Part shown: one piece after another, positions 74 through 63,352 of the stretch
Numbering within the stretch: the stretch's first letter is position 1
Layout of the letters: every line of letters begins with the position of its first letter
NCBI GenBank assembly: GCA_024679065.1
Contig: JAGIQG010000019.1
Coordinates: forward strand, 16,678,001-16,742,000
Reading direction: 5' to 3'
Origin: Sphyrna mokarran
Lineage: Eukaryota
Length of the DNA stretch: 64,000 bases
Notes under the pieces: model-generated
Told to the model about the DNA's origin: nothing
Database searches by the model: none
The model's input: the letters and a program-made list of their open reading frames with translations, nothing else
Program-made: the position numbers and the translations under genes

Positions 74-133
74 AAGTCATCACGACAACAGTGAAACCAA
101 CGACAACCAGTTCCACTATCATCCCCCCACCAG
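74..133 (+). CDS. Exon A (EVITTTVKPTTTSSTIIPPP)
   Basis: ttcttcag|...CCAG|gtgagt, 60 nt. Confidence 0.85.
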
Positions 134-3100
134 GTGAGTGAAATCTCTTTTTAGGCAATAGCAAAACCGGTGTTGCAAACTGTTCATTTTCAGCAATTTC
201 CAGGCCGTGGAAAGACACTTTTTCACACTTATTTCTAGTTAGTGCCTAACTTCCCAACTGAATGTATTGATAGCACACTGATTCAAATGAAGCTGGATGA
301 GAACGTGTACATAAGAAGAAATGTTTTCTCTGTGTTTCTGTGTGTACTGTTGTCTCCTAGAATCTACTCACTCAACAATATTTCCTGAACCCGTTCCTAA
401 ATATCGCCTGACATTGGAATAATTTCTGAAGTCTGCATTACACGATGCTGCTGATATGCAGCATCTTTGTCAAAGTTCAGCAGTTTCCATATCATATCTT
501 ATCAATGGATCTTTCCCTTAGCATGATGTGATTGTTAAAATTCTTCCATTTTCTTCTCTCGCTCAGTAATTTAGAATATTTTTGAAACAATTACAAAGTT
601 GTAAATGTGGACGCGCCTTTGTTGTGTTTAGCTTTGCTCCTTCATTCTCCAACTTAGTTGAGCTCGTTAGTAGCTGTAGACAGTATGTTCCTCATTCTTA
701 TTGCCTTACTGTGAATTAAATCAGCTAATGTTGGAAGTCTATTAATACAGCTGTATTTCCAGTCAGAGTGCTGTGGTTTTGAATAATTGTCTTTTCCTGT
801 AGAACTGACAACTAGAACAAAAGGAACAACAATTCCAACAACAATAGTGATTGAGATTTTCCTTCAATATTGGAATCTCCCTCTGAGACACTCCCGTGGT
901 TTCGATGACGACTTCCTTCCATTAGGGATCATGGGATGGCAGAAGAGTCCAATGGACAATCTGCACATTCTGCCGCATGCCGGACAGACTTTGCTTCGAG
1001 AATAATTTAGATAACGTGCTTGGGGATTTGTCTGCTCGTTCTGATATCTCAAATTTATCTGTGAGACAGTGTTTCTCGGTGTGTTTCCACTTTGGTTATT
1101 CAGAGGCCGAGCACTCCCATGAATTGATGGGAATGTTTGGTATCATCAGGAATCCTTCAAGACAGCCCTGAAATGTTTCTTCTGTCCCACGGGTATTTCC
1201 TTCTCCCACTGCATTCTGGGCAATGCTGTTGCTTTGAGAATCTGGTTTCAGGAAATCAAATGTCATCTGCCCAGCCGAAGTGGTTACGTATAATTGTTGA
1301 CTCACTGCTGAATATGTTGTCTTGGGAGAGGATGCTGGCTGTTGGAAAGCATTTCTTGCAATAGATTAGGAGGACCTTGCAAAGACATGTGTGTTACAAT
1401 TCTTTGAGGTGTATGAAGTCCAATTTGACAAAGAAGAAAAGAGTGTGGTGCTGTGTGCTGTGCGATAAAGCAAAATCTTAGCGTCTTGTTGTAGAACAGG
1501 TCCGCAATCATCTTTTCAAATCCTCTTCCAAGCACATCTTAATCAACAGTGGCTCAGACAATTCCAGTCCGTCAATTAAGCCCTTTAGTTTGATCCAATT
1601 CCTTTGGGATGGAGTTATTTGTAAAGTTTAGTAGTCTCAATCTGCAATCAGTGACATTTCCTCATTCACAAAAACGGTGTTGTGACAAGCTCTCCCTTGG
1701 GAGGTTTCTCTATTGGAAAATCAGATTTTTAATGTTTCAACAGTTTCATCTGTAAGTTTGATCCTTTCATCCCATTTTGTGTCCTTTTGTGGCTGCTGAT
1801 TCTATTAAAATTTTCGGAAAAATTTTCACTCCTGTTTGTAAATGTACACTTCGTTCTTCATGCTGGTGGTCTCAGCCTGCAGACATTTGAATTCCAAAAT
1901 AATTTTTTCCAGCTGTTGTCAATGTTGCTGTCGTGATAGAGTGCTGATTTTGAAAGGTCTTTCTTTGTCTGCAGTACCAACGACAACAACAACAACACAG
2001 GAAACAACACCCACACCTGGGAAACCTACTACAACAGGTTAGTGCTGTTTCCTTTCAATATTCACCAGCATGGCTTTTCACAGTGGTGTGCTTATCTGTT
2101 TCAGTGTCTGTTCATTTGGTCAGTCTTGCCCACACCTCGTGTTCGAAAGAAATGGTTGAAAATTTACTCAAATTTGAAACATCAATTGGATTTGTGAACC
2201 TCATTTTGACACCACGATCTCTATGATGGTTTTCTGGTCAAAGTGGACAGGAATACAATGGTGTTGACATTGTGGTGAATTGGTTTCATTCTTTCTTTTC
2301 TCCTTCAGAAAGGGTCACTACAACGGTGAAACCATCTACCATTGGGCCCCCTCCAGGCTCCACATCAGGTGAGTAACGGCTTCTTTTCTTCAACAGCAGC
2401 GAGAGCTGGAAACGAGTGAAATAAAAACAAATGGTTCTGCAAATATTCATCAATGCTAACAACACCTGCTGAGCATTTGGAGCACTTTCTGTTTGCATAT
2501 CAGATTTGCAGCAAGCACAGCATTTTACATTTTATTCAGTGAAAAAGTGAGATATAGTCCAAGAAGCCAAACTCCCGGTCCCATTGAGGTCATTACAAGG
2601 TCCATTCTTATAGCTGGTTGTGTGCCTTCTTGCTTGTGTTTCTTCCAATATTAACACGAATGCCTCCCCCAAAGTGTACCAATGCCTCCCCAAATCATTT
2701 CCAGCTTTCAGGATGCTGTGTTTCTTTTTGGTCTGTCTATAACTGCTAATCTTGTTATTGAGTTTCCCATCCTGTGATAAACCTTGTAAAATGTTTGCCC
2801 ATTCACAACAATAACAAAGTAAATCGCACGGTAAAACAGTGTTAGCTTTATGTTGTCCAACAGTGAAGTTGATTGTGTTTCTTGTTCTTCAGAAGTCATC
2901 ACTACAACAGTGAAACCAACGACAACCAGTTCCACTATCATTCCCCCACCTGGTGAGCGAAATCTCCTTTTGTTATACAATAGCAAAACTGGTGTCGCAA
3001 ACTGTTCATTTGGGGCAATTTCCAGGCAGTAGAAAGACACTGCTTCAGACTTATTTCTAGTTAGTGCCTACCTTCCCAAGTGAACGTATTGATAAAGAAC

Positions 3101-6100
3101 TGATTCAGATGAAGCTGGATGAGAACATGTACATGAGATAAAATGTTTTCTCTGTGTTCCTGTGTGTACTGTTCTCTCCTAGAATCTACTCACTCAACAA
3201 TATTTCCTGAACCTGTTCCTAAATATCGCCTGACATTGGAATAATTTCTGCAGTCTACATTACATGATGATGCTGATATGCAGCATTTTGTCAAAGTTCA
3301 GAAGTTTCCATAACATATCTTATCAATGGATCTTCCCCTTAGCATGATGTGATTCTTAAAATTCTTCCAATTTCTTCTCTCGCTCAGTAATTTAGAATAT
3401 TTTTGAAACAATTACTAATTTGAAAATGTGGACTTGTCTTTCTTCTGTTCAGCTTTGCTCTTTTATTCTCCAATTTAGTTCATCTCGTTGGTATCTGTAG
3501 ACAGTGTGTTCCTCATTCTTGTTGCCTTACTGTGAATTAAATCAGCTAATGTTGGAAGTCTACTAATACAGCTGTATTTCCAGTCAGAGTGGAGTGGTTT
3601 TGAATAATTCTCTTTTCCTGTAGAAGTGACTACTACAACAAAAGGAACACCAATTCCAACGACAACAGGTAATTGAGATTTTCCTTCAATATTGGAATCT
3701 CCCTATGAGACACCCCCTCAGTTTCGATGATGACTTCTTTCCATTAGGGATCATGGGATGGCAGATGAGTCCAATGGACAATCTGCACATTCTGCTGCAT
3801 GCCGGACAGACTTTGCTTCGAGAATAATTTAGATAACGTGCTTGGGGATTTGTCTGCTCATTCCGATATCTTAAATTTGTCTGTGAGACAGTGTTTCTTG
3901 GTGTGTTTCCATTTGGGTCAGTCAGAGGCCAAAAACTCCCATGAATTGATGGGGATGTTTGGTGTCATCAGGAACCCTTCAGGACAGCCCTGAAGTGTTT
4001 CTTCTGTCCCACGGGTGTCTCCTTCTACCAGTGCATTCTGGGCAAAGACGTTGGTTTTGGAGTCTGATATCAGGCAATCAAATGTCATCTGCTGCCCAGC
4101 AGAAGTGGTTACGTGTAATTGTTGACTCACTGCTGAATATGTTGTCTTGGGAGCGGGTGCTGGCTGTTGGAAAGCTTTTCTTGCCATAGATTAGGAGGAT
4201 CTTGCAAATACACTCGTGTTACAATTCACCAGTGTTTTGAAGTGGCTGCTATAAGTTCTCCAATTTGACAAAGTAGAAAAGAGTGTGGTGCTCTGTGCTG
4301 TGCGATAAAGCAAAACCTTAGCCTCTTGTTTGTAGTACAGGACCGCAATAATCTTTTCAAATCCTCTTCCAAGTGCATCTTAATCAACATTGGCTCAGAC
4401 AATTCCAGTCGGTCAATTCAGTCCTTTAGTTTGATCGAATTCCTTTGGGATGGAGTTATTTGTAAAGTGCAGATTGAGAATACTGAAATCAGTGACGTTT
4501 TCACACTCACAAAAACGGTGTTGTGACAAGCTCTCCCTTGGGAGGTTTCTATATCGGAAAGTCAGATTGTTAATGTTTCAACAGTTTGATCTGTGAGTTT
4601 CATCCTTTCATCCGATTCTGTGTCATTTTGTGGATCCTTATTCTAATGAAATGTTCGGCAAAATTTTCATTCCTGTTCGTAAATGTACAGTTTGTTCTTC
4701 ATGCTGGTGGTCACAATCTGCAGACATTTCAATTCCAAAAGAGTTATTTCCAGATGTTGTCAATGTTGCTGTCTTGATAGAGTACTGATTTTGAAAGGTC
4801 TTTCTTTGTCTGCAGTACCAACGACAACAACAACAACACAGGAAACAACAACCACACCTGGGAAACCTACTACAACAGGTTAGTGCTGTTTCCTTTCAAT
4901 ATTCACCAGCATGGCTTTTCACAGTGGTGTGCTTATCTGCTTCAGTGTCTGTTCATTTGTTCAGTCTTGCTCACACCTCCTGTTCGAAGGAAATGGTTGA
5001 CAATTTACTCAAATTTGAATCATCAATTGGATTTGTGAACCTCATTTTGACACCAAGATCTATATGATAGTCAATATGATGGTTTTCTGGTCAGAATGGA
5101 CAGGAATACAATGGTGTTGACATTGTGGTGAATTGGTTTCATTCTTTCTTTTCTCCTTCAGAAAGGGTCACTACAACAGTGAAACCATCTACCATTGGGC
5201 CCCCTCCAGGCTCCACATCAGGTGAGTAACGGCTTCTTTGCTTCAACCGCAGCAAGAGCTGGAAACAAGTGAAATAAACACAGATAGTGGTGGAAATATT
5301 CAGCAACGCTGACAACACCTGCTGAGTATTTGCAGCACTTTCTGTTTGCATATCAGATTTCCATCAAGCACAGCATTTCACATTTTGTTCAGTGAAAAAG
5401 GGACCTCGTTTCAGCACGAATGATAAATTCATCCTTTCACCATGGGGACGCGCTGTGACTATATTATCGAAAGGGAAATGGTATTTTTACTGCCTGAATA
5501 AAGGTAGATCTGAGGTGGGAGCTGAGGGGAAATGCTGTGTGCATAAATGTTCACACCAGTGCACTCTTCTCAAATTCCCCTTTTAGACACCGCCCGTCCA
5601 TTCAGTCAGACTTATCAACATTTCCTTATGGAGTGTTTCAAATCGTCTGAATCCATATTTACTATTGCAAACAACACAATTGCGACAAAGCCAGCTGTCA
5701 CAAAGCTGGCTGATGTTAACTGCGAGAATGTCCCAACTGGGAAACACCAATTCATGGAGTGTGCACTTTTGTCTGCTGGAACAGTGAAATGGACCACGTG
5801 TAATTCCCACAGAGAACAGTAACCAGCCGAATCATTGTATCACACTCATTAAATGTCTATTTCCTACAATGAAGAAAAGATAAATATACACACAAACAGG
5901 ATTATAAGACATTTATGAATAAGACTAGTAAACCCACCCCCATAGTTTAATAAGGAATTAATCTTCAGATCAAAAGCAGGTTTACGAGATCTGAACTCTT
6001 TCAGGACTTCCTCCTGTCCCAATAACATCCAATTCAACAGATATATAAATAAAGGCCAGCTTACAGTTAACACACTGTTTACAATTGAATCATTATTCTG

Positions 6101-9100: not shown

Positions 9101-12100
9101 TTGAATTCACCTACGTTTCCACTAATCTGCCGGATACAGCTTATCTGTTTTACCATTACCCCTTGACCAGAAAGCCCCACATTTCTGATCTCCATAATAA
9201 TGTCTACTCTCCATTTCCAATCCCTCCATAACTACTCTTCTTATCTCCCTAAATCCTGCCTCTGGTTTCCCTATAACCTTTAATCTCCCAGGAATTTGCT
9301 TTATAATCCAATTAGCTTATGCTTTGCCCTTTCCAATCTTTCCTGACTACAATCGTTCTCTCACTGGGATTTCCCCTCTTTGCCCGCTCCCCACACTATG
9401 ACCCTCCCAATTTCCCTGCCTTTCCCATTATATCCAGTCGTATTGAGTATTGTTCTCTGCCAATGTCTGGTGTGAAGGTCTAAAACTCATCTGTGGCTAG
9501 TCTCTCCAACTGGCTAACTGGCTATCTCTTGTGGGGTTAGGGAGAAACAATTGCACTCAGGTCCTCTCATTAATTTCAGCAGGTTCTACGGAAAGTCCGT
9601 TCTGCCTCTATAAATAGCAATAATTTTCTTTCATCCAGTATATTGAAATAGAATTTTTTGAATCAATTATGCAAATGTTGTCTTGCCACTTTCATATTTG
9701 TTAATCTTTCTGTTCAGAAATGACAACTTCGGCAGAAACACAAAAAACCACGGTCCGAATATATGAACATACTACAACACGTAAGTTGTGTCTTCCTTCA
9801 TTATCTTCCAGCAAGTCTCTTCACACGTTTTTCAAATTCACTTTTCAGGCAATGTCAGTCCATTACTTTAGTCTTATAGAAACTTTGTTTTGGGTGTAAA
9901 CGGTTGAACACAAGACCACGGGAGTGTTAATGACAGTTTTAAAGATTAAAGAAGGTGCTGATAGTGATATAAAGACAAAATAGCAGACTCTGTTTATAAT
10001 AAAACAAAGGTGAATCCTCTGTGATAGCAAAACTCAAGAACAAGTGACAGATGGCCCTTTGGGACTTTGAGGGAGAGGTGGTTATTGGGAGAAAAACAAA
10101 AATGCATTTTTGAAAAAGGGTCAATATAGAGAGGTGAGTGCATGGTATGAAGTTGCTAAACTCAATATAAATTTCAGAAGACTGGAAAGTGCCTCATCGG
10201 AAGATGGCGCGGATGATATTCTTACCTTTATGCCACCATTATCACCTTTAACGCGATCATTAACAGTCCCTGTGTGTTCTATGACATTGTTGTCGAGCCT
10301 CTCCTGATTCCATCTACCCCTGACCGTCTAGTTTCTTCTACCTACTCTATTCTCTTTTAAACAGGATAAAATCCATCACACTTCTCTGTCTCTCATTAGC
10401 TCTGTAGAAGAAGCTACCAAATCAATTGACAGCAACTAGAAATAATTCCAATAACAACTCCTCCCGTTGTGACTGATGGTTTCTTGTGATATACAGTAAC
10501 AAGGCACAGTCATATTTTTGCACAAGATCCTGGGCAGTAGAAGGACATTATTCATACTTGTAATTTTTTTAGCTCATTCCTTCCAGAGCGTGTTTTTTTA
10601 AATTGTAATTATTTTAATCAAATGAGATCAAAGTCTGTGGCTGAGGAGCTATGTTCACATGTGTGAATGTCTCTATATCATTTAGAAACTACATGCTTAG
10701 CAGCAATTAAATTTATTTATTAGTGCCACAAGTAGGCTTACATTAACACTGCAGTGCAGTTACTGTGAAAATCCCTGCGTTGCTACACTCCAACACCTAT
10801 TCGGGTACACTGAGGAAGAATTTAGCATGTCTTTTGGACTGTGGGAGAACATTGGAGCACTCAGAGGAAACCCACGCAGATATGTGTAAACTCCGCACAG
10901 ACAATGAACCAAGCCGGAAATCAAACCCCGGTTCCTGGCACTGAGCAACAGTGTTAACCACTGCGCCACCATGTCATCTTTCATTTTTGGATTGATGTGC
11001 TGTTAATTGCACAAAATATAAAGTTTACATTTCACGTCGATGGTGAAATTTTGTGTATTTTCAAATATCAATAAATCATTGTAATATACAGTCAAACGAT
11101 GATCCCATTGACCCTGTAATTCTTTACATTCTTTCCATTTTTTCTTTCGTCTATTAGATTGAGATGATTCTTTTGAAACACAATCAATTGTGTAACTATT
11201 GTTGTGTTTATCCTATGTTTGTGCTTACTGTTATTATTTGACAGACAGAAATAATGTTGTTCTTATTGTTGGAGGACAATCCCTTTCCTCATCCTATGTA
11301 CTTTGGTCTCAGTATAATACCACTTGATGAATTGCTCAATGCTGTAGGATTTGAATTTCGGACTCAGTAGTTTTATTTTCTTTTCTTGTGTTGCAGCTGT
11401 CACTGAAAAACTGGTAAAGGAATCTACAACAGGTAAGCGATTTCTTCTTTCAATACTCATCAATAAGTCTGTTCATACCAGGGGCAGTTTTCTCAAATTC
11501 AAGCTTCAGGCAATGTCAGTTCACCAGCTCAGCCAAGATGACACTGAACTTATGGGTAGAAATGGAAAGCTCAGAGGCATCTGAATCTGTGGACAATTTT
11601 TTCAACACCTCTGAAACCTAATCCATATGTAGATGTGTTCCATGTTCATCTGTCTGTTGTCATTTCTGCTTTGGTTCTCAACCTTATTGTTGAAATCATA
11701 TCAGGCCATGTGAAAGCATTGGAAGATTTCTGTTACTTGTCAATAGTGAGATTTTGTATGTTGTCAAATTTGGCAGATTTTTACTTGCTAAGGGGCGTGA
11801 TTGGGGCCAGATGAATTGACAGTGTGGATGGGGTGGTTAATATGTCCAACATTGACTTGTAGATCTTTTTACTAATGATGAACACAGCCAGCTGTGTCCA
11901 CGTCCATCTTGATTTGCTTACAATCGATCATGACTGTATTAAAAATAGGCAGTGATTGTGCCTCATTCATATTAAACATTGCCTATTCTAAGCTGTCTAG
12001 ATGATGTGTCATTGGTTGAGGTTTCATCACATTTAAATTTTCTTGCTCAGCCTTCACCTTGCTGATTCCATTTCTTCACAAAATTCCCTTTCTTATTGCA

Positions 12101-15100
12101 CTGGTGACAAATAGCATCCATAAATTTGATTTGCCCACTATACCTAAAACATTCCTCTGTTTTCACCTCCTTGTTTGCACCTACTTGTTCATTTGCTGCA
12201 GCATCAACCTTAGCCTTCTGAATATCCATTTCTTCCATGTGCGTGGAAATAATTGAATATTTGAAGACCACCGAATTCAGAAGTTATTTTATAAATAAAA
12301 GCAAAATACTGGAGATGCTGGAAATTCTGATTTAAAGATAATGCTGGATGAGTTCAGCAGGTCAGCGGCATCTGAAGAGAGAAACAGAGTTAAGGCATGG
12401 CTGCACTTGTCCCGAAAATGGAAAATCCCACCAGTGTCAGTGGATCTTTCCATTGTCCGCATCTCTCCAGCTTTCAATCACAAGGCAGGCAGAACAAGAA
12501 AATTTGCACCAGTATTAGATGACTCTTCCACAGATCCTTCTGCAGAAAGATTAGTTAGATCTGAAACATTAAATCATTTTCTCTCCAGAAGTACTAGTAG
12601 ATCTGCTGAGGATATCCACCATTTTCTATTTTATGGTCTAATCACAACAGCATGTTTGTAGGAAAGCCAACTAAATAAACTTTGCAGTCACACATTGCTA
12701 GATTTATGTTGCCTTGCCAGAGATTTGATCGCGTTTCTTGTTCTCCAAAAGAAACCAGAAAACCAGTTATGTTGTACTACAGTGAAGTTGATTGTGTTTC
12801 TTGTTCCCCAGAAGGGACCAGTAAACCAATAATATCAAGTACCAGCAGTTACACTATCGGGCATCTGGTGTCAGGCAATCAAATGTTATCTCCTGCCCAG
12901 CCGAAGTGGTTACGTGTAATTGTTGACTCACTGCTGAATATGTTGTCTTGGGAGAGGATGCTAGCTGTTGGGAAGTGTTTCTTGCCATAGATTAGGATTA
13001 CCTTGCAAAGACACTTGTGTTACAATTCTCCAGTGTTTTGAGGTGGCTGCTATAAGTTGTCCAATTTGACAAAGCAGAAAAGAGTGTGGTGCTCTGTGCT
13101 GTGCGATAAAGGAAAACCTTAGCCTCTTGTTGTAGGACAGGGCCACAATCATCTTTCCAAATCCTCTTCCAAGTGCATCTGAATCAACATTGGCTCAGAC
13201 AACTCCAGTCCATCAATTCAGTCCTTTAGTTTCATCCAATTCCTTTGGGATGGAGTTATTTGTAAAGTTCAGTATTCTCAGTCTGCAATCAGTGACATTT
13301 TCACATTCACAAAAACGGTGTTGTGACAAGCTCTCTCTTGGGAGGTTTCTCTATCGGAAAATCAGATGGTTAATGTTTCAATAGTTTCATCTGTAAGTTT
13401 GATCCTTTCATCCCATTTTGTGTCCTCTTGTGGCTGCTTATTACAATAAAATTTTCGGCAAAATTTTAACTCCTGTTCGTAAACGTACAGTTTGTTCTTC
13501 ATGCTGGTGCTCACAATCTGCAGACATTTCAATTCCAAAAGAGTTATTTCCAGATGTTGTCAATGTTGCTGTCTTGATAGAGTGCTGATTTTGAAAGGTC
13601 TTTCTTTGTCTGCAGTACCAATGACAACAACAACAACACAGGAAACAACGACCACAACTCGAAAACCTACTACAACAGGTTAGTGCTGTTTCCTTTGAAT
13701 ATTCACCAGCAAGTCTGTTCACAGAGATGTGCTTATTAGTTTCAGTGTCTGTTCAATCGGTCGGCTTTGCCCACACCTCCTATTCGAAAGAAATGGTTGA
13801 AAATTTACTCAAATTTGAATCATCAATTCGATTTGTGAACCTCATTTTGACACCAAGATCTATATGATGTTTTCTGGTAAACTGGACAGGAATACAATGG
13901 TGTTGACATGGTGGTGAATTGGGTTCATTCATTTTCTTCCCTTTCAGAAAGGGTCACTGTGACAGTAAAACTATCGGGTTTCAGCGCGAATTATAAATTT
14001 ATAATTTCAACATGGGGATGCGCTGTGACTATACTTTCCAAAGGGAAATGGTATTTTTACTGCTTGAATAAAGGTAGATCTGAGGTGGGAGCTCAGGGGA
14101 AATGCTGTGTGCATAAATGTTCATACCAGTGCACTCTTCTCAAATTTCCCTTATAGATATTATTCAGGGGAATGTCTCTTGTAGATTCAGTGAAAAAATA
14201 GGTTTTATCTGCCTCCACAAAGGTTTCTGCACTCTTCTTCTGCTCTGCTAACCTTACATGCTACTAGCTGGATTTTGTGCCTCAGGCTGCTAAATGGATG
14301 CTGCCTCCTGCTCCCACAAAAAAGTTGCCAAATATATAATTGTTTAGCTTTGAAGATTAAATATCTCCTCAGAGGATGGTGTCTCTTCACCAGATTCCCA
14401 TTATTTACAATCTTATCTCCACTTATAAAAGTGCGTCAGGATCAATGTCAAAATTCATAGTGTCAGCAGCCCTGACTCTCCCATTTCTATAAACAATTCA
14501 GACTCCCTGATTGGTGGGCAATTATTAGCTCAATCAGGGTGCTTATAGTGCAAGAAGCCAAACTCCTGACCTCATTGAGGTCATTACAAGATCCATTCTT
14601 ATAGCTGGCTCTATGCCTTTTGCTTGTGTTACTTCCAATATTAACATGAATGTCTTCCCCAAATTGTACCAATGCCTCCCCAAATTATTTCCAATTTGCA
14701 GGATGCTGTCTTCCTTTTTGGTCTGTCTACAACTGCTAATCTTGTTACTGCTTTTGCCATCCTGTGATACACCTTGTAAAATGTGGACCATTCAAGACAG
14801 CAACAAAGTAAATCTCACATTGAAACACTGTTAGCTTGATGTTGTCCAGCAGTGAAGTTGATTGTGTTTCTTGTTTTTCAGAAGTCATCACTGAAACAGT
14901 GAAACCAACGACAACCAGTTCCACTACCATCCCCCCTCCAGGTGAGTGAAATCTTCTTTCGTTACACAATAGCAAAACCGGTGTCGCAAACTGTTCATTT
15001 GGAGCAATTTCCAGGCAGTGGAAAGACACTGCTTCACACTTATTTCTAGTTAGTCCCTAACTTCCCAAGTGAACTCATCGATAACCGTGTGATTCAGATG

Positions 15101-18100
15101 AAGTTCAATGAGAACATATACATGAGAAGAAATGTTTTCTCTGTGTTTCTGTGTGTACTGTTCTCTCCTAGAATCGACTCGCTCAACAATATTTCCTGAA
15201 CCTATTCCGAAATATAGCCTGAGATTGGAATAATTTCTGCAGTCTCCATTACACAACGATGCTGATATGCAGCATCTTTGTCAAAGTTCAGTAGCTTCCA
15301 CAACAGCTGAATTAAATAAGCTAATGTTGGAAGTCTATTAACACATTTGGATTTCCAGTAGAGTGAAGTGGTTTTGAATAATTCTCTTTTCTGTAGAAGT
15401 GACAACTACAACAAAAGGAACACCAATTCCGACGACAACAGGTAATTGAGATTTTCCTTCAATATTGGAATCTCCCTATTAGACACTCCCTCGGTTTCCA
15501 TGATGACCTCTTTGAATTAGGGATCATGGGATGGCAGATGAGTCCAATGGATAATCTGCACGTTCTGCCACATGGGGGACAGACTTTGCTTCAAGAATAA
15601 TTTAGATAACGTGCTTGGGGATTTGTCTGCTCGTTCTGATATCTCAAATTTATCTGTGAGACAATGTTTCTTCGTGTGTTTCCATTTGGGTCAGTCAGAG
15701 GCCGAGCACTCCCATGAATTGACGGGGAAATTTGGAGTCATCAGGAATCGTTCAAAACAGCCCTGAAGTGCTTCTTCTGTCCCACGGGTATCTCCTTCTA
15801 TCAGTTCAGTATTCTCAAACTACAATCAGTGACATTTTCACATTCATAAAAACGGTGTTGTGACAAGCTCTCCCTTGGGAGGATTCTCCATTGGAAAATC
15901 GGATCGTTAATGTTTCAACGGTTTCATCTGTAAATTTGATCGTTTCATCCCATTCTGTGTCCCTTTGTGGCTGCTTATTCTAATACAATTTTCGGGAAAA
16001 TCTTCACTCCTGTTCGTAAATGTACACTTTGTACTTCAATGCTGGTGCTCACAGTCTACAGACATTTCAATTCCAAAAGAGTTATCTCCAGATGTTGTCA
16101 ATGTTGCTGTCTTGATAGAGTGCTGATTTTGAAAGATCTTTCTTTGTCTGCAGTACCAACGACAACAACAACAACACAGGAAACACCAACCACACCTGGG
16201 AAACCGACTACAACAGGTTAGTGCTGTTTCCTTTCAATATTCACCAGCATGGCTTTTCACAGTGGTGTGCTTATCTGCTTCAGTGTCTGTTCATTTGTTC
16301 AGTCTTGCCCACACCTCTTGTTCGAAAGAAACGGTTGAAAATTTACTCAAATTTGAATCATCAATTGGATTTGTGAACCTCATTTTGACACCAAGATCTA
16401 TATGATAGTCGATATGATGGTTTTCTGGTCAAAGGGGAGAGGAGTACAATGGTGTTGACATTGTGGTGAATTGGTTTCATTCTTTCTTTTCTCCTTCAGA
16501 AAGGGTCACTACAACAGTGAAACCATCTACCATTGGGCCCCCTCCAGGCTCCACATCAGGTGAGTAACGGCTTCTTTGCTTCAACCGCAGCAAGAGCTGG
16601 AAACAAGTGAAATAAACACAGATAGTGGTGGAAATATTCAGCAACGCTGACAACACCTGCTGAGTATGTGCAGCACTTTCTGTTTGCATATCAGATTTCC
16701 AGCAAGCACAGCATTTCACATTTTGTTCAATGCAAAAGGGACCTCATTTCATCGCAAATGACAAATTCATCATTTCACCATGGGGACGCGCTGTGACTGT
16801 ATTATCGAAAGGGAAATGGCATTTTTACTGCCTGAATAAAGGTAGATCTGAGGTGGGAGCTGAGGGGAAATGCTGTGTGCATAAATGTTCACACCAGTCA
16901 CTCTTCTCAAATTCCCCTTTTAGACAATGCCCGTCCATTCAGTCAGACTTATCAACATTTTCTTATGGAGTGTTTCAAATCGTCTGAATCCAGATTTACT
17001 AGTGCAAACAAGACAATTGCAACAAAGCCAGCTGTCACAAAGCTGGCTGATGTTAACTGCGAGAATGTCCCAATTGGGAAACACCAATTCATGGAGTGTG
17101 CACTTTTGTCTGCTGGAACAGTGAAAGGGACCACGTGTAATTCCCACAGAGAACAATAACCAGCCAAATCATTGTATAATACTTATTAATATCTGTTTAT
17201 TACAATGAAGAAAAGACACATTTACACACAAACAGGAGTATAAAACATTTATAAATAAGACTAGTAAACCCACCCACCACCAGTTTAATAAGGAATTACC
17301 GTTCTGATCCAAAGCAGGTTTAAAAGATCTGAACTATTTCAGGACTTCCCTCTTTCGCAATAGCATCCAATTCAACAGATATATAAATAAAGGCCAGCTT
17401 ACATTTAACACTGTATCATTATTCTGGGAAACTTCTCTTGTAGGTTCAGCGAAGCAATGGGTTTTATCTGCTTCCACAAAGGTTTCTGCACTCTTGCTTC
17501 TGCTCTGCTAACCAGCAGCACCTTACATGTTGCTAGCTGTATATTGTGCCTCAGGCTACTAAATGGATGCTGCCTCCTGCTTCCACAAAAAAGTTGCCAA
17601 GTATATAATTGTTTAGCTTTGAAGATTGAAATATCTCCTCAGAGGATGGTGTCTCTTCACCAGATTCCTATTATTTACAATCTTATCTCCACTTACAAGA
17701 CTGCGTCAGGATCAAAGTCAAAATTCAGAATGTCAGCAACCCTGACACTACCATTTGTATATACAATTCAGACTCCCTGGTTGGTGGGCAATTATTAGCT
17801 CAATCAGGGAGCTTACAGTGCAATAAGACAAACTTCTGGCCTCATTGACGTCATTACAAGATCCATTCTTATAGCTGGCTCTATACCTTCATGCTTGTGT
17901 TACTTCCAATATTAACATGAATGTGTTCCCCAAATTGTACCAATGCCTCCCCAAATTATTTCCAATTTGCAGGATGCTGTGTTTCTTTTTGGTCTGTCTA
18001 CAACTGCTAATCTTGTTATTGAGTTTCCCATCCTGTGATACACCTTGTTAAGTGTTTGCGCATTTCTGACAATAATAAAGTAAATCTCACAGTAAAACAG

Positions 18101-51100: not shown

Positions 51101-54100
51101 CACCAGGTGAGTGAAATCTCCTTTTGTTACACAATAGCAAAACCTTGTGTCGCAAACTGTTCATTTGCAGGAATTTCCAGGCAGTGGAAAGACAATTCTT
51201 AACACTTATTTCTAATTAGTGCCTACCTTCCCAAGTGAACGTATTGATAACGGACTGATTCAGATGAAGCTGGATGAGAATGTGTACATGAGAAGAAAAC
51301 TTCTGTGTTCCTTGTGTACTGTTCTCTCCTCGCATCTACTCACTCAACAATATTTCCTGAACCTGTTCCTATATATCGCCTGACATTGTAATAATTTCTG
51401 CAGTCTACATTACATGATGATGCTGATATGCAGCATCTTTGTCAAAGTTCAGCAGTTTCCATAACATTTCTTATCAATGGATCTTCCCCTTAGCATGATG
51501 TGATTGTTAATATTCTTCCATTTTCTTCTCTCGCTCAGTAATTTAGAATACTTTTGAAACAATAACAAATTTGTAAATGCGGACATGCCTTTCTTCTGTT
51601 CAGCTTTGCTCCTTTATCCTCCAAGTTAGTTGAGCTCGTTAGTAGCTGTGGACAGTATGTTCCTCACTCTTGTTGCCTTGCTGTGAATTAAATCAGCTAA
51701 TGTTGGAAGTCTTTTAGTACAGCTGGATTTCCAGTCAGATTGCAGTGGTTTTGAATAATTCTCTTTTCTTGTAGAAGTGACAACTACAACAAAAGGAACA
51801 ACAATTCCAACAACAATAGTGATTGAGATTTTCTTTCAATATTGTAATCTCCCTATGAGACACTCCCTCGGTTTCGATGATGACTTCTTTCCATTAGGGA
51901 TCATGGGATGGCAGATGAGTCCAATGGACAATCTGCACGTTCTGCCGCATGCCGGACAGGCTTTGCTTCGAGAATAATTTAGATAACGTGCTTGGGGATT
52001 TCTCTGCTCGTTCCGATATGTCAAATTTATCTGTGAGACAGTGTTTCTCGCTGTGATTCCATTTGGGTCAGTCAGAGGCCAAGCACTCCCATGAATTGAT
52101 GGGGATGTTTGGTATCATCAGGAATCCTTCAAGACAGCCCTGAAGTATTTCTTCTGTCCCCCTGGTATCTCCTGCTATCATTGCATTCTGAGCAATGCTG
52201 TTGCTTTGGGAATGTGGTTTCAGGCAATCAAATGTCATCTGCTGCCCAGCCGAAGTGGTTACGTGTAATTGTTGACTCCCTGCTGAATATGTTGTCTTGG
52301 GACAGCATCCTGGCTGTTGGAAAGCCTTTCTTGCAATAGATTAGGAGGACCTTGAAAAGACACGTGTGTTACAATTCTTTGAGGTGTAAGTTGTCCAATT
52401 TGACAAAGCAGAAAAGAGTGTGGTGCTCTGTGCTGTGCGATAAAGCAAAATCTTAGCCTCTTGTTGTAGAACAGGACTGCAATCATCTTTTCAAATCCTC
52501 TTCCATGTGCATCTTCATCAACATTGGCTCAGACAATTGCAGTCCGTCAATTAAGACCTTTAGTTTGATCCAATTCCTTAGGGATGGAGTTATTTGTAAA
52601 GTTCAGTATTCTCAATCTGCAATCAGTAACGTTTTCACATTCACAAAAACGGTGTTGCGATAAGCTCTCCCTTGGGAGGTTTCTCTATCGGAAAATCAGA
52701 TTGTTAATGTTTCAACAGTTTCATCTGTAAGTTTGATCCTTTCATCCCATTCTGTGTCCCTTTGTGGCTGCTTATTCTAATACAACTTTCGGGAAAATCT
52801 TCACTCCTGTTCGTAAACGTACAGTTTATTCTTCATGCTGGTGCTCACAGTCTGCAGACATTTCAATTCCAAGAGTTATTTCCAGATGTTGTCAATGTTG
52901 CTGTCTTGATAGAGTACTGATTTTGAAAGGTCTTTCTTTGTCTGCAGTACCAACGAACAACACAGGAAACACCAACCACACCTGGGAAACCTACTACAAC
53001 AGGTTAGTGCTGTTTCCTTTCAATATTCACCAGCATGGCTTTTCACAGTGGTGTGCTTATCTGCTTCAGTGTCTGTTCATTTGTTCAGTCTTGCCCACAC
53101 CTCGTGTTCAAAGGAAATGGTTGAAAACTTACTCTAATTTGAAACATCAATTGGATTTGTGAACCTCATTTTGACACCACAATCTATATGATGGTTTTCT
53201 GGTCAAAGTGGACAGGAATACAATGGTGTTGACATTGTGGTGAATTGATTTCATTCTTTCTTTTCTCCTTCAGAAAGGGTCACTACAACAGTGAAACCAT
53301 CTACCACTGGGCCCCGTCCGGGCTCCACATCGGGTGAGTAACGGCTTCTGTTCTTCAACAGCAGCAAGAGCCGGAAACCAGTCAAATAAAAACAAATGGT
53401 GCTGGAAATATTCATCAATGCTAACACCTGTTGAGTATTTGGAGCACTTTCTGTTTGCATATCAGATTTGCAGCAAGCACAGCATTTTACATTTTATTCA
53501 ATGAAAAAGTCAGCTTATAGTCCAAGAAGCCAAACTCCTGGTCTGATTGAGGTCGTTACATGATCCATTCTTATAGTTCTTGCTTGTGTTACTTCCAATA
53601 TTAACATGAATGTCTCCCCCAAAGTGTACCAATGCCTCCCCAAATCATTTCCAGCTTTCAGGATGCTGTGTTTCTTTTTGATCTGTGTACACCTGCTAAT
53701 CTTGTTCTTGAGTTTCCCATCCTGTGATAAACCTTGTAAAATATTTGCCCATTCACAACAATAACAAAGTAAATCTCACAGTAAAACAGTGTTAGCTTTA
53801 TGTTGTCCAACAGTGAAGTTGATTGTGTTTCTTGTTCTTCAGAAGTCATCACTACAACAGTGAAACCAACGACAACCAGTTCCACTATCATCCCCCCACC
53901 GGGTGAGTGACATCTTCTTTCGTTACACAATAGCAAAACCGGTGTCGCAAACTGTTCATCTGGGGCAATTTCCAGGCAGTGGAAAGACAGTGGTTCTCAC
54001 TTAATTTCTAGTTAGTTCCTAACTTCCCAACTGAATGTATTGATAACGGACTGATTCAGATGAAGCTGGATGAGAATGTGTACATGAGAAGAAATGTTTT

Positions 54101-60100: not shown

Positions 60101-63100
60101 CTTATCAACGGATCTTCCCCTTAGCATGATGTGATTGTTAAAATTCTTCCATTTTCTTCTCTCACTCAGTAAGATAGAATATTTTTGAAACAAGAATAAA
60201 TTTGTAAATGTGGACTTGTCTTCCTCCCGTCCAGCTTTGCTCCTTTATTCTCCAAGTTAGTTGAGTTCATTAGTAGCTGTAGACAGTATGTTCCTCATTC
60301 TTGTTGCCTTACTGTGAATTAAATCAGCTAATGTTGGAAGTCTATTAATACAGCTGGATTTCCAGTCAGAGTGCAGTGGTTTTGAATAATTCTCTTTCCC
60401 TGTAGAAGTGACAACTACAACAAAAGGAACACCAATTCCGACGACAACATGTAATTGAGATTTTCCTTCAATATTGGAATCTCCCTATTAGACAATCCCT
60501 CGGTTTCGATGATGATTTCCTTCCATTAGGGATCATGGGATGGCAAATGAGTCCAATGGACAATCTGCACGTTCTGCCACATTCCAGAAGGATTTTCCTC
60601 TGAGAATAGTTTAGATAACGTGCTTGGGGATTTGTCTGCTCGTTCCGATATCTCAAATTTATCTGTGAGACAGTATTTCTCGGTGTGTTTCCATTTGGGT
60701 CAGTCAGAAGCCGAGCACTCCCATGAATTGACGGGGACGTTTGGTGACATCAGGAGTCGTTCAAGACAGCCCTGAAGTGCTTCTTCTGTCCCACGGGTAT
60801 CTCCTTCTATCAGCGCACTCTGGGCAAAGCCATCGTCTTGGGAGTCTGCTGTCAGGCAATCAAATGTCATCTGCTGCCCAGCCGAATTGGTTATGTGTAA
60901 TTGTTGACTCACTGCTGAATATGTTGTCTTGGGAGAGGATGTTGGAAAGCCTTTCTTACCATACATTAGGAGGTCCTTTCAAAGACACTTGTGTTACGAT
61001 TCTCCAGTGTTTTGAGATGGCTGCTGTGAGTTGTCCAATTTGACAAAGCAGAAAAGAGTGTGGTGCTCTGTGCTGTGCGATAAAGGAAAACCTTAGCCTC
61101 TTGTTGTAGTACAGGGCCACAATCATCTTTTCAAATCCTCTTCCAAATGCATCTTAATCAACATTGGCTCAGACAACTCCAGTCCATCAATTCAGTCCTT
61201 TAGTTTCATCCAATTCCTTTGAGATGGAGTTATTTGTAAAGTTCAGTATTCTCAATCTGCAATCAGTGACATTTTCACATTCACAAAAACGATGTTGTGA
61301 CAAGCTCTACCTTGGGAGGTTTCTCTGTCGGAAAATCAGATTGTTAATGTTTCAACAGTTTCATCTGTAAGTTTGATCCTTTCATCCCATTCTGTGTCCT
61401 TTTGTGGCTCCTTATTCTCATAAAATTTTCGGCAAAATTTTCACTCCTGTTCGTAAGTGTACAGTTTGTTCTTCATGCTCACAGTCTGCAGACATTTCAA
61501 TTCTAAAAGACTTATTTCCCGATGTTGTCAATGTTGCTGTCTTGATAGAGTGTTGACTTTGAAAGGTCTCTCTTTGTCTACAGTACCAACGACAACAACA
61601 ACAACACCGGAAACAACAACCACACCTGGGAAACCTACTACAACAGGTTAGTGCTGTTTCCTTATTATGAAATATTACAAAAATTACAGAACGACTACTA
61701 AACTCACCCACACAGTTTAGTAAGGAATTACCCGTCTGATCCAAAGCAGGTTTACAAGATCTTAACTATTTCAGGACTTCCCTCTGTCCCAGTAACATCC
61801 AATTCAACAGATATATAAATAAAGGCCAACTTACAGTTAACACCATATCATTATTCTGGGGAACTTCTCTTGTAGGTTCAGCGAAGCAATGGGTTTTATC
61901 TGCCTCGACAAAAGTTTCTGCACTCTTGCTTCTGCTCTGCTCACCAGCAGCACCTTACATGATGCTAGCTATATTTTGTGCCTCAGGCTACTAAATGGAT
62001 GCTGCCTCCTGCTTCCACAAAAAAGTTGCCAAGTATATAATTGTTTAGCTTTGAAGATTGAAATATCTCCTCAGAGGATGGTGTCTCTTCAGCAGATTCC
62101 CATTATTTACAATCTTATCTCCTGTGTCAGGATCAAAGTCAAAATTCAGAATGTCACCAACCCTGACACTCCCATTTGTATATACAATTCAGACTCCCTG
62201 ATTGGTGGGCAATTATTAGCACAATCACGAGGCTTATAGTGCAAGAAGCCAAACTCCTGGCCTCATTGAAGTCATTACAAGATCCATTCTTATAGCTGGC
62301 TCTATGCCTTCTTGCTTGTGTAATTTCCAATGTTAACATGAATGTCTTCCCCAAATTGTACCAATGCCTCCCCAAAATATTTCCAATTTGCAAGATGCTG
62401 TATTTCTTTTTGGTCTGTCTATAACTGCTAATCTTATTATTGAGTTTCCCATCCTGTGATACACCTTGTAAAATGTGGACCCATTAACGACAATAACAAA
62501 GTAAATCTCACAGTGAAACAGTGTTAGCTTTATGTTGTCCAACAGTGAGGTTGATTGTGTTTCTTGTTCTTCAGAAGTCATCACTACAACAGTGAAACCA
62601 ACGACAACCAGTTCCACTACCATCCCCCTACCAGATGAGTGAAAGCTTCGTTTGTGACACAATAGTAAAACTGGTGTCATAAACTGTTCATTTGCAGCAA
62701 TTTCCAGGCAGTGGAAAGACACTGCTTCACACTTATTTCTAGTTAGCGACTAACTTCCCAAGTGAACTGATTGATAAACCGTCTGATTCAGATGAAATTC
62801 GATGAGAACGTGCAGATGAGAAGAAATGGTTTCACCGCGTTTCTGTGTGTACTGTCCTCTCGTAGATTCTACTCACTCAACAATATTTCCTGAACCTGTT
62901 CTGAAATATCCCCTGACATTGGAATAATTTCTGCAGTCTGCATTACACGATGATGCTGATATGCAGCATCTTTGTCAAAGTTCTGCAGTTTCCATAACAT
63001 ATCTTATCAATGGATCTTCCTCTTAGCATGATGTGATTGTTAAAAATCTTCCATTTTCTTCTCTCGCTCAGTAATTTAGAATATTTTTGAAACAAGAACA

Positions 63101-63352
63101 AATTTGTAAATGTGGACTTGTTTTCCTCCTGTCCAGCTTTGCTCCTTTATTCTCCAAGTTAGTTGAGCTCGTTAGTAGCTGTAGACAATATGTTCCTCAT
63201 TCTTGTTGCCTTGCTGTGAATTAAATCAGCTAATGTTGGAAGTCTATTAATACAGCTGGATTTCCAGTCAGAGTGCAGTGGTTTTGAATAGTTCTCTTTT
63301 CCTGTAGAAGTGACAACTACAACAAAAGGAACACCAATTCCAACGACAACAG
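74..63352 (+). CDS. Internal part of a multi-exon mucin-like (PTS-domain) gene; about 60 intact phase 1-1 microexons, about 1134 codons; 5' and 3' ends lie outside the window
   Basis: Repeated polypyrimidine+YAG acceptors and GT(R/T)A donors flank 36-63 nt 3n exons that splice into one stop-free frame. The A-B-C-D unit is 76 aa with 33 Thr, 14 Pro, 5 Ser and no Cys or Asn. Confidence 0.88.
803..846 (+). pseudogene. Exon B copy with damaged donor (44 nt, ATA|gtgatt)
   Basis: 1 nt shorter than the consensus ACAG|gtaatt; would shift the frame if used. Confidence 0.6.
880..1545 (-). mobile_element. Degraded 3' fragment of an RTE-clade LINE ORF2; present in every B-C intron, partly deleted in some copies
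   Basis: Minus-strand remnants SILSQDNI, FPETRFSKQ, GQKKHF..LKDS, NIPINSWE and CPACGRMCRLSIGLFCH (plus WTTYSSHLKTLE in other copies) resemble the RTE C-terminus. Boundaries approximate. Confidence 0.75.
1975..2037 (+). CDS. Exon C (VPTTTTTTQETTPTPGKPTTT)
   Basis: tctgcag|...ACAG|gttagt, 63 nt. Confidence 0.85.
2309..2368 (+). CDS. Exon D (ERVTTTVKPSTIGPPPGSTS)
   Basis: ttctccttcag|...TCAG|gtgagt, 60 nt. Confidence 0.85.
2893..2952 (+). CDS. Exon A
   Basis: AG/GT, 60 nt. Confidence 0.8.
3624..3668 (+). CDS. Exon B (EVTTTTKGTPIPTTT)
   Basis: ttttcctgtag|...ACAG|gtaatt, 45 nt. Confidence 0.85.
4816..4878 (+). CDS. Exon C
   Basis: AG/GT, 63 nt. Confidence 0.85.
5162..5221 (+). CDS. Exon D
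   Basis: AG/GT, 60 nt. Confidence 0.85.
6827..6886 (+). CDS. Exon A
   Basis: AG/GT, 60 nt. Confidence 0.85.
7428..7472 (+). CDS. Exon B
   Basis: AG/GT, 45 nt. Confidence 0.85.
8162..8845 (-). mobile_element. Possible 3' LTR of an LTR retrotransposon that interrupts the array (with a nested SINE)
   Basis: Array homology ends near 8162. The minus strand shows purine-rich GGGAGGAGCGGTGA, then TGTGAC (8845), ending in GTTAACA (8162): TG..CA termini with a PPT-like tract. Confidence 0.4.
8263..8553 (-). mobile_element. tRNA-derived V-SINE
   Basis: V-domain-like GGAGGAAACTGGAG..GAAAACCCATGCAGAC..CAAACTCCACACAGAC, B-box-like GGATTCAATTCC on the minus strand, (TAAA)n tail. Confidence 0.8.
9718..9780 (+). 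CDS. Unique divergent exon E (EMTTSAETQKTTVRIYEHTTT)
   Basis: ctttctgttcag|...ACAC|gtaagt, 63 nt, phase 1-1, Thr-rich, open frame. Confidence 0.75.
10709..10973 (-). mobile_element. tRNA-derived V-SINE (same family as 8263-8553)
   Basis: Minus-strand A-box TGGCGCAGTGG, B-box-like GGTTTGATTTCC, V-domain and the same tail. Confidence 0.8.
11397..11432 (+). CDS. Unique exon F (xVTEKLVKESTT)
   Basis: tttcttttcttgtgttgcag|...ACAG|gtaagc, 36 nt, phase 1-1. Confidence 0.7.
11880..12280 (-). mobile_element. Degraded Gypsy-type gag-protease fragment
   Basis: Minus strand: decayed zinc knuckle CFR...KFMDAICHQCNKKGN followed by the aspartic-protease-like PIFNTVMIDCKQIKMDVDTA. Confidence 0.65.
12292..12633. 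mobile_element. Inverted-repeat relic resembling the Penelope-like element ends common in shark/ray genomes
   Basis: ATGCTGGATGAGTTCAGCAGGTCAGCGGCATCTGAAGAGAGAAACAGAGTTAA has an imperfect reverse complement at about 12560-12630. Family assignment is from recall. Confidence 0.55.
12812..12862 (+). pseudogene. Truncated A-like exon relic (EGTSKPIISSTSSYTIG), donor deleted
   Basis: A-type acceptor context (agtgaagttgattgtgtttcttgttccccag), then fused directly to B-C intron sequence. Confidence 0.6.
13616..13678 (+). CDS. Exon C variant (VPMTTTTTQETTTTTRKPTTT)
   Basis: AG/GT, 63 nt. Confidence 0.8.
13948..13977 (+). pseudogene. Truncated exon D (ERVTVTVKLS); original donor deleted, only a weak in-phase G|gtttca remains
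   Basis: Acceptor intact; the 3' half of the exon and the intron start are missing. Confidence 0.6.
14882..14941 (+). CDS. Exon A
   Basis: AG/GT, 60 nt. Confidence 0.85.
15397..15441 (+). CDS. Exon B
   Basis: AG/GT, 45 nt. Confidence 0.85.
16154..16216 (+). CDS. Exon C
   Basis: AG/GT, 63 nt. Confidence 0.85.
16500..16559 (+). CDS. Exon D
   Basis: AG/GT, 60 nt. Confidence 0.85.
18154..18213 (+). CDS. Exon A
   Basis: AG/GT, 60 nt. Confidence 0.85.
18668..18712 (+). CDS. Exon B
   Basis: AG/GT, 45 nt. Confidence 0.85.
19858..19920 (+). CDS. Exon C
   Basis: AG/GT, 63 nt. Confidence 0.85.
20204..20263 (+). CDS. Exon D
   Basis: AG/GT, 60 nt. Confidence 0.85.
21120..21164 (+). CDS. Exon B (starts Ala; TAGCAG acceptor)
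   Basis: AG/GT, 45 nt. Confidence 0.8.
22293..22355 (+). CDS. Exon C
   Basis: AG/GT, 63 nt. Confidence 0.85.
22639..22698 (+). CDS. Exon D
   Basis: AG/GT, 60 nt. Confidence 0.85.
24237..24296 (+). CDS. Exon A
   Basis: AG/GT, 60 nt. Confidence 0.85.
24753..24797 (+). CDS. Exon B
   Basis: AG/GT, 45 nt. Confidence 0.85.
25944..26006 (+). CDS. Exon C
   Basis: AG/GT, 63 nt. Confidence 0.85.
26290..26349 (+). CDS. Exon D
   Basis: AG/GT, 60 nt. Confidence 0.85.
27938..27997 (+). CDS. Exon A (ends STTVPTP)
   Basis: AG/GT, 60 nt. Confidence 0.85.
28471..28515 (+). CDS. Exon B
   Basis: AG/GT, 45 nt. Confidence 0.85.
29665..29727 (+). CDS. Exon C
   Basis: AG/GT, 63 nt. Confidence 0.85.
30011..30070 (+). 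CDS. Exon D
   Basis: AG/GT, 60 nt. Confidence 0.85.
31652..31711 (+). CDS. Exon A
   Basis: AG/GT, 60 nt. Confidence 0.85.
32383..32427 (+). CDS. Exon B (last base T; weaker donor CAT|gtaatt)
   Basis: AG/GT, 45 nt. Confidence 0.7.
32962..35707 (-). mobile_element. 5'-truncated CR1-clade LINE inserted antisense in a B-C intron
   Basis: CR1-type ORF2, CR1 3' motif GGGCCGAAGGGCCTGTTTCC, short poly(A), candidate 4-bp TSD TTGT (32958-32961 / 35708-35711). Array sequence resumes exactly after it. Confidence 0.95.
33429..35703 (-). pseudogene. CR1 ORF2 (endonuclease C-terminus + reverse transcriptase), frameshifted
   Basis: PTREGAILDLVL, KAPGPDGIYPRLL, DVVYMDFSKAFDKVPH, GVPQGSVLGPLLF, FAGDTK (normally FADDTK), YTTLVRPHLEYC; split over 4 ORF pieces. 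Confidence 0.92.
36310..36372 (+). CDS. Exon C
   Basis: AG/GT, 63 nt. Confidence 0.85.
36656..36715 (+). CDS. Exon D
   Basis: AG/GT, 60 nt. Confidence 0.85.
38251..38310 (+). CDS. Exon A
   Basis: AG/GT, 60 nt. Confidence 0.85.
38981..39025 (+). CDS. Exon B (TAGCAG acceptor, last base T)
   Basis: AG/GT, 45 nt. Confidence 0.7.
40172..40234 (+). CDS. Exon C
   Basis: AG/GT, 63 nt. Confidence 0.85.
40518..40577 (+). CDS. Exon D
   Basis: AG/GT, 60 nt. Confidence 0.85.
42164..42223 (+). CDS. Exon A
   Basis: AG/GT, 60 nt. Confidence 0.8.
43645..43704 (+). CDS. Exon A
   Basis: AG/GT, 60 nt; follows a noisy junction. Confidence 0.78.
44159..44203 (+). CDS. Exon B
   Basis: AG/GT, 45 nt. Confidence 0.8.
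45349..45411 (+). CDS. Exon C
   Basis: AG/GT, 63 nt. Confidence 0.8.
45695..45754 (+). CDS. Exon D
   Basis: AG/GT, 60 nt. Confidence 0.8.
47349..47408 (+). CDS. Exon A
   Basis: AG/GT, 60 nt. Confidence 0.8.
47863..47907 (+). CDS. Exon B
   Basis: AG/GT, 45 nt. Confidence 0.8.
49053..49115 (+). CDS. Exon C
   Basis: AG/GT, 63 nt. Confidence 0.8.
49399..49458 (+). CDS. Exon D
   Basis: AG/GT, 60 nt. Confidence 0.8.
51047..51106 (+). CDS. Exon A
   Basis: AG/GT, 60 nt. Confidence 0.82.
51775..51818 (+). pseudogene. Exon B copy with damaged donor (44 nt, ATA|gtgatt)
   Basis: Same lesion as 803-846. Confidence 0.6.
52948..53002 (+). pseudogene. Exon C copy with an 8-nt deletion (55 nt)
   Basis: Splice sites intact; the ACA run is shortened by 8 nt. 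Confidence 0.6.
53274..53333 (+). CDS. Exon D variant (ERVTTTVKPSTTGPRPGSTS)
   Basis: AG/GT, 60 nt. Confidence 0.8.
53843..53902 (+). CDS. Exon A
   Basis: AG/GT, 60 nt. Confidence 0.85.
54572..54619 (+). CDS. Exon B with one extra Thr codon (48 nt)
   Basis: AG/GT, in-frame +3 indel. Confidence 0.85.
55762..55824 (+). CDS. Exon C (VPTTTTTTPETTTTPGKPTTT)
   Basis: AG/GT, 63 nt. Confidence 0.85.
56759..56818 (+). CDS. Exon A
   Basis: AG/GT, 60 nt. Confidence 0.85.
57490..57534 (+). CDS. Exon B
   Basis: AG/GT, 45 nt. Confidence 0.85.
58674..58736 (+). CDS. Exon C
   Basis: AG/GT, 63 nt. Confidence 0.85.
59673..59732 (+). CDS. Exon A
   Basis: AG/GT, 60 nt. Confidence 0.85.
60406..60450 (+). 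CDS. Exon B (last base T)
   Basis: AG/GT, 45 nt. Confidence 0.7.
61584..61646 (+). CDS. Exon C
   Basis: AG/GT, 63 nt. Confidence 0.85.
62575..62634 (+). pseudogene. Exon A copy with a dead donor (CCAG|atgagt)
   Basis: +1 G>A relative to the other 16 copies. Confidence 0.65.
63308..63352 (+). CDS. Exon B
   Basis: AG/GT, 45 nt. Confidence 0.85.

Follow-up and report, generated by a model that had tools for sequence, protein, structure and literature searches.

The shark Sphyrna mokarran carries, on contig JAGIQG010000019.1 (C760), a long array of very short exons that, judged from sequence, forms the proline-, threonine- and serine-rich (PTS) domain of an apparently intact gel-forming mucin gene. 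The window analyzed here comprises 64,000 nucleotides (nt), C760:16,678,001-16,742,000, and exon positions are given in its coordinates. Most of these micro-exons are probably spliced in by default (a probability of roughly 0.7), with the length of the domain changing at the DNA level and a leaky tail of skipped forms. The phase would have become fixed a single time, in an ancestral PTS exon, and been passed on from there, and a four-exon unit would then have been amplified through unequal exchange. Duplication, deletion and splice-site loss would be the main sources of change in domain length, exon symmetry rendering such losses and occasional mis-splicing harmless. Exons of 36-63 nt together with a few weak donors would yield a tail of shorter in-frame transcripts with no dedicated regulation. 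The encoded protein is predicted to be a large polymeric mucin, O-glycosylated and with some 1,900 PTS residues, from an mRNA of about 11-12 kb.

The Micro-Exon Array

Exons were called by a de novo scan, followed by a homology search and an alignment of each class. The window contains 66 exon-like copies, comprising 18 of class A, 17 of class B, 16 of class C, 13 of class D, and the single exons E and F. Sixty of the 66 are intact, being bounded by AG and GT, a multiple of three in length (3n) and phase 1-1, with lengths of 60 nt (28 exons), 63 nt (16), 45 nt (14), 48 nt (1) and 36 nt (1); they are duplicates of a few ancestors, and hence not 60 independent observations. The initial annotation had described all exons as symmetric phase 1-1 cassettes of 36, 45, 48, 60 or 63 nt. 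Lengths and phase hold for these 60, but "all" does not, as the C copy at 52948 is 55 nt long and keeps normal splice sites. A frame-agnostic scan (all three frames, 24-199 nt) yields almost only phase 1-1 from the array, and 1 match on the minus strand of the window.

74..63352, + strand: central part of the PTS-domain micro-exon array (homology search, alignment)
74..133, + strand: class A exon, 60 nt, phase 1-1 (VITTTVKPTTTSSTIIPPP); 16 intact in the window
3624..3668, + strand: class B exon, 45 nt, phase 1-1; 15 intact, one of them 48 nt (54572-54619)
1975..2037, + strand: class C exon, 63 nt, phase 1-1; 15 intact
2309..2368, + strand: class D exon, 60 nt, phase 1-1; 12 intact
9718..9780, + strand: exon E, single-copy, 63 nt, phase 1-1, donor CAC|GTAAGT; in a non-amplified spacer separating two amplified blocks
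11397..11432, + strand: exon F, single-copy, 36 nt, phase 1-1

The repeat unit, A-B-C-D, spans about 2.8-3.9 kb, with introns of 271-3882 nt separating successive intact exons; class D distantly resembles class A (about 70-80% across part of its length). The amplified array as a whole starts ~29.6 kb before the window and ends ~7 kb after it. Its 107 copies, 95 of them intact, amount to 1808 codons with 0 in-frame stops, and 68% of the residues are P, T or S, which together with the surrounding anatomy bears out the original reading of the locus as a mucin. Comparison of the window with itself reveals multi-kb blocks that are almost identical, reaching 99% over 5.2 kb, which shows that the amplification was recent and took place at the level of DNA. 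Tandem Repeats Finder reported a single 14-bp repeat, the array being invisible to it because the unit is longer than its period limit. Of the two off-frames, one is interrupted by only 4 stops across the 1808 codons, and a +1 frameshift therein reads far through Asn/His/Tyr-rich sequence; this long open off-frame is probably a by-product of ACA/ACC codons.

Gene Anatomy and Family Assignment

The anatomy of the gene was traced by tblastn with shark and ray homologues, whose flanking exons map in order with stop-free aligned cores. A signal peptide lies 92 kb upstream of the window, followed by D1-D2-D'-D3, three N-terminal VWD-C8-TIL assemblies in homologue-mapped exons from C760:16,586,004 to about 16,628,400. 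At least seven single-copy PTS exons, all phase 1-1, precede the amplified array, and 3' of it lie a single CysD exon (match to Mucin2_WxxW at E 1e-15), then D4, then a cystine knot (CK). Pfam matches include VWD, Mucin2_WxxW and again VWD. The cystine knot is 50% identical to the CK of the homologue, and its Pfam Cys_knot match (E 9e-4) falls below the curated cut-off and covers the second CK exon only. A signal peptide with three VWD-C8-TIL assemblies, a central PTS domain and a cystine knot at the C-terminus are the hallmarks of a gel-forming mucin, and all are found here.

A search with one D3 exon retrieved 59 candidates, of which 55 proteins reached E<=0.001. Mucins of sharks and rays rank first (Mustelus 93%), followed by mucin-19 of bat, bichir and bowfin (57-65%; 61-65% for bat and bichir), and ranking by identity places mucin-19 above MUC2/5. 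Directly upstream of the mucin cluster, at C760:15.795-15.83 Mb, are LRR, Roc, COR-B and kinase exons, with an ABCD-type gene 0.4 Mb further upstream at 15.38-15.40 Mb, an arrangement that matches the LRRK2 and ABCD2 neighborhood of the Muc19/spiggin locus. The LRR-Roc-COR-kinase gene was located with a Roc probe and a scan of open reading frames (ORFs) covering 150 of the 385 long ORFs; from its position it is inferred to be LRRK2 rather than LRRK1. Probes for COR-A and alpha-adaptin gave no match on the mucin-cluster contig; alpha-adaptin matched once, elsewhere, and a further COR-A match lies on contig C883. No contactin domain was found among the scanned downstream ORFs, where laminin-N and laminin-EGF exons are present (C760:17.10-17.12 Mb). 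Human MUC19 and LRRK2 lie within one 742-kb region (PMC10557577, figure legend). On synteny and match ranking, the gene is best filed as a paralogue of the Muc19/spiggin locus.

Paralogues and the Origin of the Phase

In secreted proteins, modules are usually of phase 1. Six gel-forming mucin genes, five on the + and one on the - strand, occupy C760:15,866,000-17,012,000, the window gene being the fourth. Among the scan matches in its paralogues, phase 1-1 accounts for 75/75 in gene 1, 101/103 in gene 3, 14/15 in gene 6, 2/2 in gene 5 and 1/1 in gene 2. The repeats of these paralogues differ in sequence from those of the window array, and the same phase is found in the non-amplified exons upstream of the array. 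Being common to paralogues with other repeats and to upstream exons, the phase predates the array and is inherited within the family, and so says little about regulation. A duplicated coding exon must in any case be symmetric to persist. The step taken in the initial annotation, from exon symmetry to a splicing-based length rheostat, finds no support here. The Mustelus orthologue model has the upstream single-copy units in common with Sphyrna but repeats a different set of exons, which points to lineage-specific amplification at the DNA level.

Three of the genes, the window gene and two neighbors, carry 75-100 PTS micro-exons each, whereas two genes of a second mucin cluster in this genome, on contig C1437, have giant exons instead; one of the two has a D3 exon that scores best to MUC2/MUC5B. 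One C1437 gene has long PTS frames of 3022 and 2649 codons and 2 micro-exon scan matches, the second a frame of 600 codons and 1 such match; in a third C1437 stretch (60 kb) PTS exons of neither kind were found. The 3022- and 2649-codon frames overlap (C1437:64.94-64.96 Mb), which may reflect a frameshift or an assembly slip inside a giant exon. Within the C760 cluster, gene 1 has at least 75 PTS micro-exons across about 200 kb and no D4 match, making it the better candidate for a mammal-like MUC19 form. Gene 6 has four CysD exons interspersed with PTS exons of 57-60 nt. In gene 3, ~186.7 kb before the window, a micro-exon has grown to 150 nt via an internal 6-residue tandem repeat (SPATTV) and retained phase 1-1, possibly a first step from a micro-exon towards an exon of the variable-number tandem repeat type.

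Selection, Decay, and Loss among Copies

With the copies projected on one reference unit, and dead copies included in the exon value, introns are the most diverse (0.082), ahead of exons (0.050) and splice signals (0.038), with p about 0.013 by block permutation; the copies are related, so p-values are indicative. Divergence from the intact exon consensus is 25/252 in six 44-nt B copies vs 20/882 in 21 intact copies, with intron divergence alike in the two groups (46/720 and 152/2516). These comparisons are indicative of purifying selection on the exons, of moderate strength, and on the splice signals, donor-damaged copies appearing to decay like intron DNA, a pattern that fits translated exons turning neutral once their donor is damaged. 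Twelve of the 107 copies in the whole array are damaged, and those in the window are as follows.

62575..62634, + strand: A copy with donor GT changed to AT, dead
12812..12860, + strand: A copy, truncated; acceptor present, 3' part and donor gone (end approximate)
13948..13985, + strand: D copy, truncated; acceptor present, donor gone (end approximate)
803..846, + strand: 44-nt B copy with weak donor ATA|GTGATT (one base lost at the donor); likely a decaying pseudo-exon
51775..51818, + strand: 44-nt B copy with weak donor ATA|GTGATT (one base lost), immediately 5' of the 55-nt C
52948..53002, + strand: C copy, 55 nt (8-nt deletion), with CAG acceptor and CAG|GTTAGT donor unchanged

The first five of these agree with the earlier statement that the array tolerates dead exons. 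B 803, if included, leads to a stop 41 codons on, and each 44-nt B alone gives a stop within 20-41 codons. Partial units have also been lost, including a single A (20.2-21.1 kb) and a B-C-D block (42.2-43.6 kb). Class D is absent beyond 55.8 kb, as had been noted, where the C exons at 55762, 58674 and 61584 each run straight into an A.

Donors of intact exons are an unchanged class-consensus CAG|GT in 52 of 60 and variant in 8; splice-site scores came from a rough weight table, not from MaxEnt, and served for ranking only. Among the variants are three B copies that end in T.

32383..32427, + strand: T-ending B copy with weak donor CAT|GTAATT; the same holds for B 38981 and B 60406

Joined to the next C, a T-ending B gives TTA; placed before any of the 42 intact exons starting with AA, it gives the stop codon TAA. 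That these exons are tolerated argues for the B-to-C order as the default, unless these weak-donor copies are themselves skipped. The initial annotation had held that exons can be removed without a change of frame. The losses of A, B-C-D and D and the donor deaths observed are in keeping with this, but the exons are not freely combinable, given the stop that these three B copies form with an exon starting AA.

The 55-nt C Exon and Its 44-nt Neighbor

If C 52948 is included alone, the frame shifts and a stop is reached after 340 codons, inside the CysD exon. Included together, B 51775 and C 52948 make up 99 nt, the frame is kept without a stop, and three or four residues are altered at the joint. 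C 52948 sits in a clade of five units (support 100/100), a 44-nt B coming before four of the five, so that the 8-nt deletion likely arose beside an already damaged B. The chance that an indel other than 3n offsets a -1 is half. The 44/55-nt offset, a single event, may reflect compensation, coincidence, a null allele or an assembly error. Derivation of C 52948 from the 54-nt variant by a one-base error was rejected as the simple explanation because they are not sister copies; a 9-nt slip that arose independently, together with a one-base error, is possible. A further reading, which seems quite unlikely, is that mucins of the shark Muc19 locus use a ladder of ~100 cassette exons as a per-molecule length dial. 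On that reading, B 51775 (-1) and C 52948 (-8) would be obligately co-included or co-skipped as a 99-nt pair, neighboring copies being coordinated in a form of splicing-level epistasis.

Weighing the Explanations

Several points weigh against default inclusion and the assignments made here. Default inclusion is a prediction from genomic sequence. Under strict default inclusion, a 55-nt C with intact sites shifts the frame of the allele if the weak-donor B before it is skipped, and this exon therefore calls for a degree of skipping, for co-inclusion, for a null allele or for a miscalled base. In all six database isoform pairs compared (6/6, from 4 species), in-frame PTS segments of 12-74 residues are the sole difference, although the pairs are predicted models of related paralogues, taken from nine clusters, and several of these segments fall in repeats to which short reads give ambiguous support. 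As modeled, these differences fit real cassette skipping. The excess of 3n indels among exonic events (4/6 distinct events vs 26/201 in introns, binomial p 0.003) is confounded by slippage of ACA triplets among copies that are not independent. As to the family, a tree of the D3 exon (82 residues, 16 rows, cluster gene 1 left out) resolves no Muc19 clade.

Were splicing regulated such that varying subsets of exons are skipped, a tissue-tuned ladder of mucin lengths would be laid on top of allelic variation, and the mesh and glycan load of mucus could be adjusted from tissue to tissue by a single gene. Such a rheostat is unlikely. In its favor, every intact window exon (60/60) is short and frame-neutral, and isoform models from shark, ray and bichir differ by short in-frame PTS segments, one of which, from Hemitrygon, is non-repetitive and 20 residues long, the size of a 60-nt exon. 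The 55-nt exon further suggests that inclusion is not universal for exons with intact sites, and frog FIM-C.1 has been termed highly polymorphic via alternative splicing (PMC7177656). However, the whole family has inherited the symmetry from an ancestor, most donors retain the class consensus, skipping only the C after any of the three T-ending B exons gives a stop, and damaged copies decay instead of persisting as optional exons. In the diversity profile (50-nt windows, low power), no clear stretch of extended conservation stands out in the introns flanking the exons. Frog Otogl, with its multi-exonic mucin domain, gave one dominant long product in long-range reverse transcription PCR (PMC5789918), and a deliberate search in chicken MUC2, whose PTS region extends across many exons, found a single splicing event there (PMC3549977).

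The 55-nt exon could instead mark a frameshifted null or incipient decay, with inclusion on its own ending the reading frame early, within the CysD exon, and the loss buffered by five paralogues, or its length could be an assembly error. Its class-consensus splice sites, the donor damage that the neighboring B 51775 shares with decaying B copies, and the damage to 12 of 107 array copies would all accord with this. It is nevertheless very unlikely, in that the flanking domain exons appear intact, exons are more conserved than introns, and the 55-nt length exactly offsets the preceding 44-nt exon; a simple sequencing error is made less likely by the 8-nt deletion relative to sister copies (clade 100/100), with no one-base slip from the 54-nt variant. 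Many near-identical tandem cassettes within one intron-rich span also recall Dscam, where mutually exclusive or block-wise choice by RNA pairing would leave few units per transcript. This model was rejected and is highly improbable, as long inverted repeats are absent from the window self-comparison (no inverted match at E<1e-10). Short inverted matches recur in one case only, which traces to a local inversion of 20 nt in a single copy, introns of 271-3882 nt impose no steric exclusion, and the Mustelus orthologue model joins successive exons in series. Default inclusion with change at the DNA level is thus preferred.

Comparison with Other Mucins

The gene resembles Muc19 and spiggin in its position after an LRRK2-like gene, its three N-terminal VWD assemblies, its PTS domain and cystine knot, and in mucin-19 proteins being its best non-chondrichthyan matches. 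It differs from mammalian MUC19 in having D4 and CysD and in being one of six paralogues, which places it outside MUC19 sensu stricto, a single-copy gene with no fourth VWD. Mammalian MUC19 has many short PTS exons as well, a point for which a literature search gave no confirmation. The tandem repeat of human MUC19 lies in an exon of ~12 kb (PMC10557577), and no long PTS exon was found in the shark gene. Spiggin is the stickleback orthologue of Muc19 and is tandemly expanded (PMC2180178), a lineage-specific expansion to which that of the shark is similar. Three Muc19 paralogues are reported from Callorhinchus, and some spiggins carry a fourth VWD, as the shark gene does, while mammalian Muc19 is without it (PMC4948705). 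The order D1-D2-D'-D3-PTS/CysD-D4-CK is also that of MUC2/MUC5-type mucins, but the shark gene lies at another locus than MUC6-MUC2-MUC5 and has micro-exons where the C1437 genes have long PTS frames, and it is therefore not a member of the MUC2/MUC5 cluster.

Xenopus FIM-C.1, FIM-B.1 and Otogl/MucXS are, like the shark gene, secreted mucins whose mucin domain is built of repeats, and the repeats of FIM-B.1 undergo cassette splicing. Frame-neutral exons, a trait of splicing-polydisperse mucins (FIM-C.1 type) and regulated cassette arrays, make up 60/66 of the window copies. The analogy with frog integumentary mucins drawn in the initial annotation is a fair one, although the Xenopus skin mucins are known from cDNA and the shark array from genomic sequence, and FIM-C.1 has trefoil modules rather than VWD. 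Titin PEVK, whose inclusion is regulated in muscle, is alike in its many short symmetric exons encoding a low-complexity, extended region.

A layout of PTS micro-exons is a known mucin design, and the idea of setting length by splicing has been in print since 2006: chicken Muc13 has one short repeat (20 aa) per exon, and control of PTS length by recombination and alternative splicing was proposed for it (Lang et al., 2006; PMC1552070). Chicken Muc13 is, however, a SEA mucin of the transmembrane type, with 12 repeats or more, whereas the shark gene is predicted to encode a secreted-type polymeric mucin with ~100 exons and a four-exon unit. The shark locus makes the 2006 proposal directly testable, as many copies have diagnostic single-nucleotide polymorphisms, although some recent near-identical copies are indistinguishable. 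PMC3056801, PMC10707392 and PMC8283412 contributed nothing on exon structure, and a description of this shark array was not found in the literature searched, a search outside which most subscription papers and supplements lay. Database models of relatives mostly look truncated in the PTS region, and the gene family is poorly annotated.

Other Features of the Locus

One B-C intron contains a retroelement, of which the other units have no copy.

32965..35710, - strand: retroelement insertion of ~2.7 kb in a B-C intron, with an RVT_1 match at 34058-34417 (ends approximate)

A 20-nt micro-inversion at 4468-4487 distinguishes one intron copy from at least 10 others. Upstream of the window are two single-copy PTS exons without a GT donor. 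The one ~34.0 kb before the window has CAG|GCAAGT, a possible GC donor, and is apparently 50 nt as read (not 3n), and the other, ~32.4 kb before the window, has CAG|ATGAGT in place of a GT donor. Units similar to both are present in the Mustelus orthologue model.

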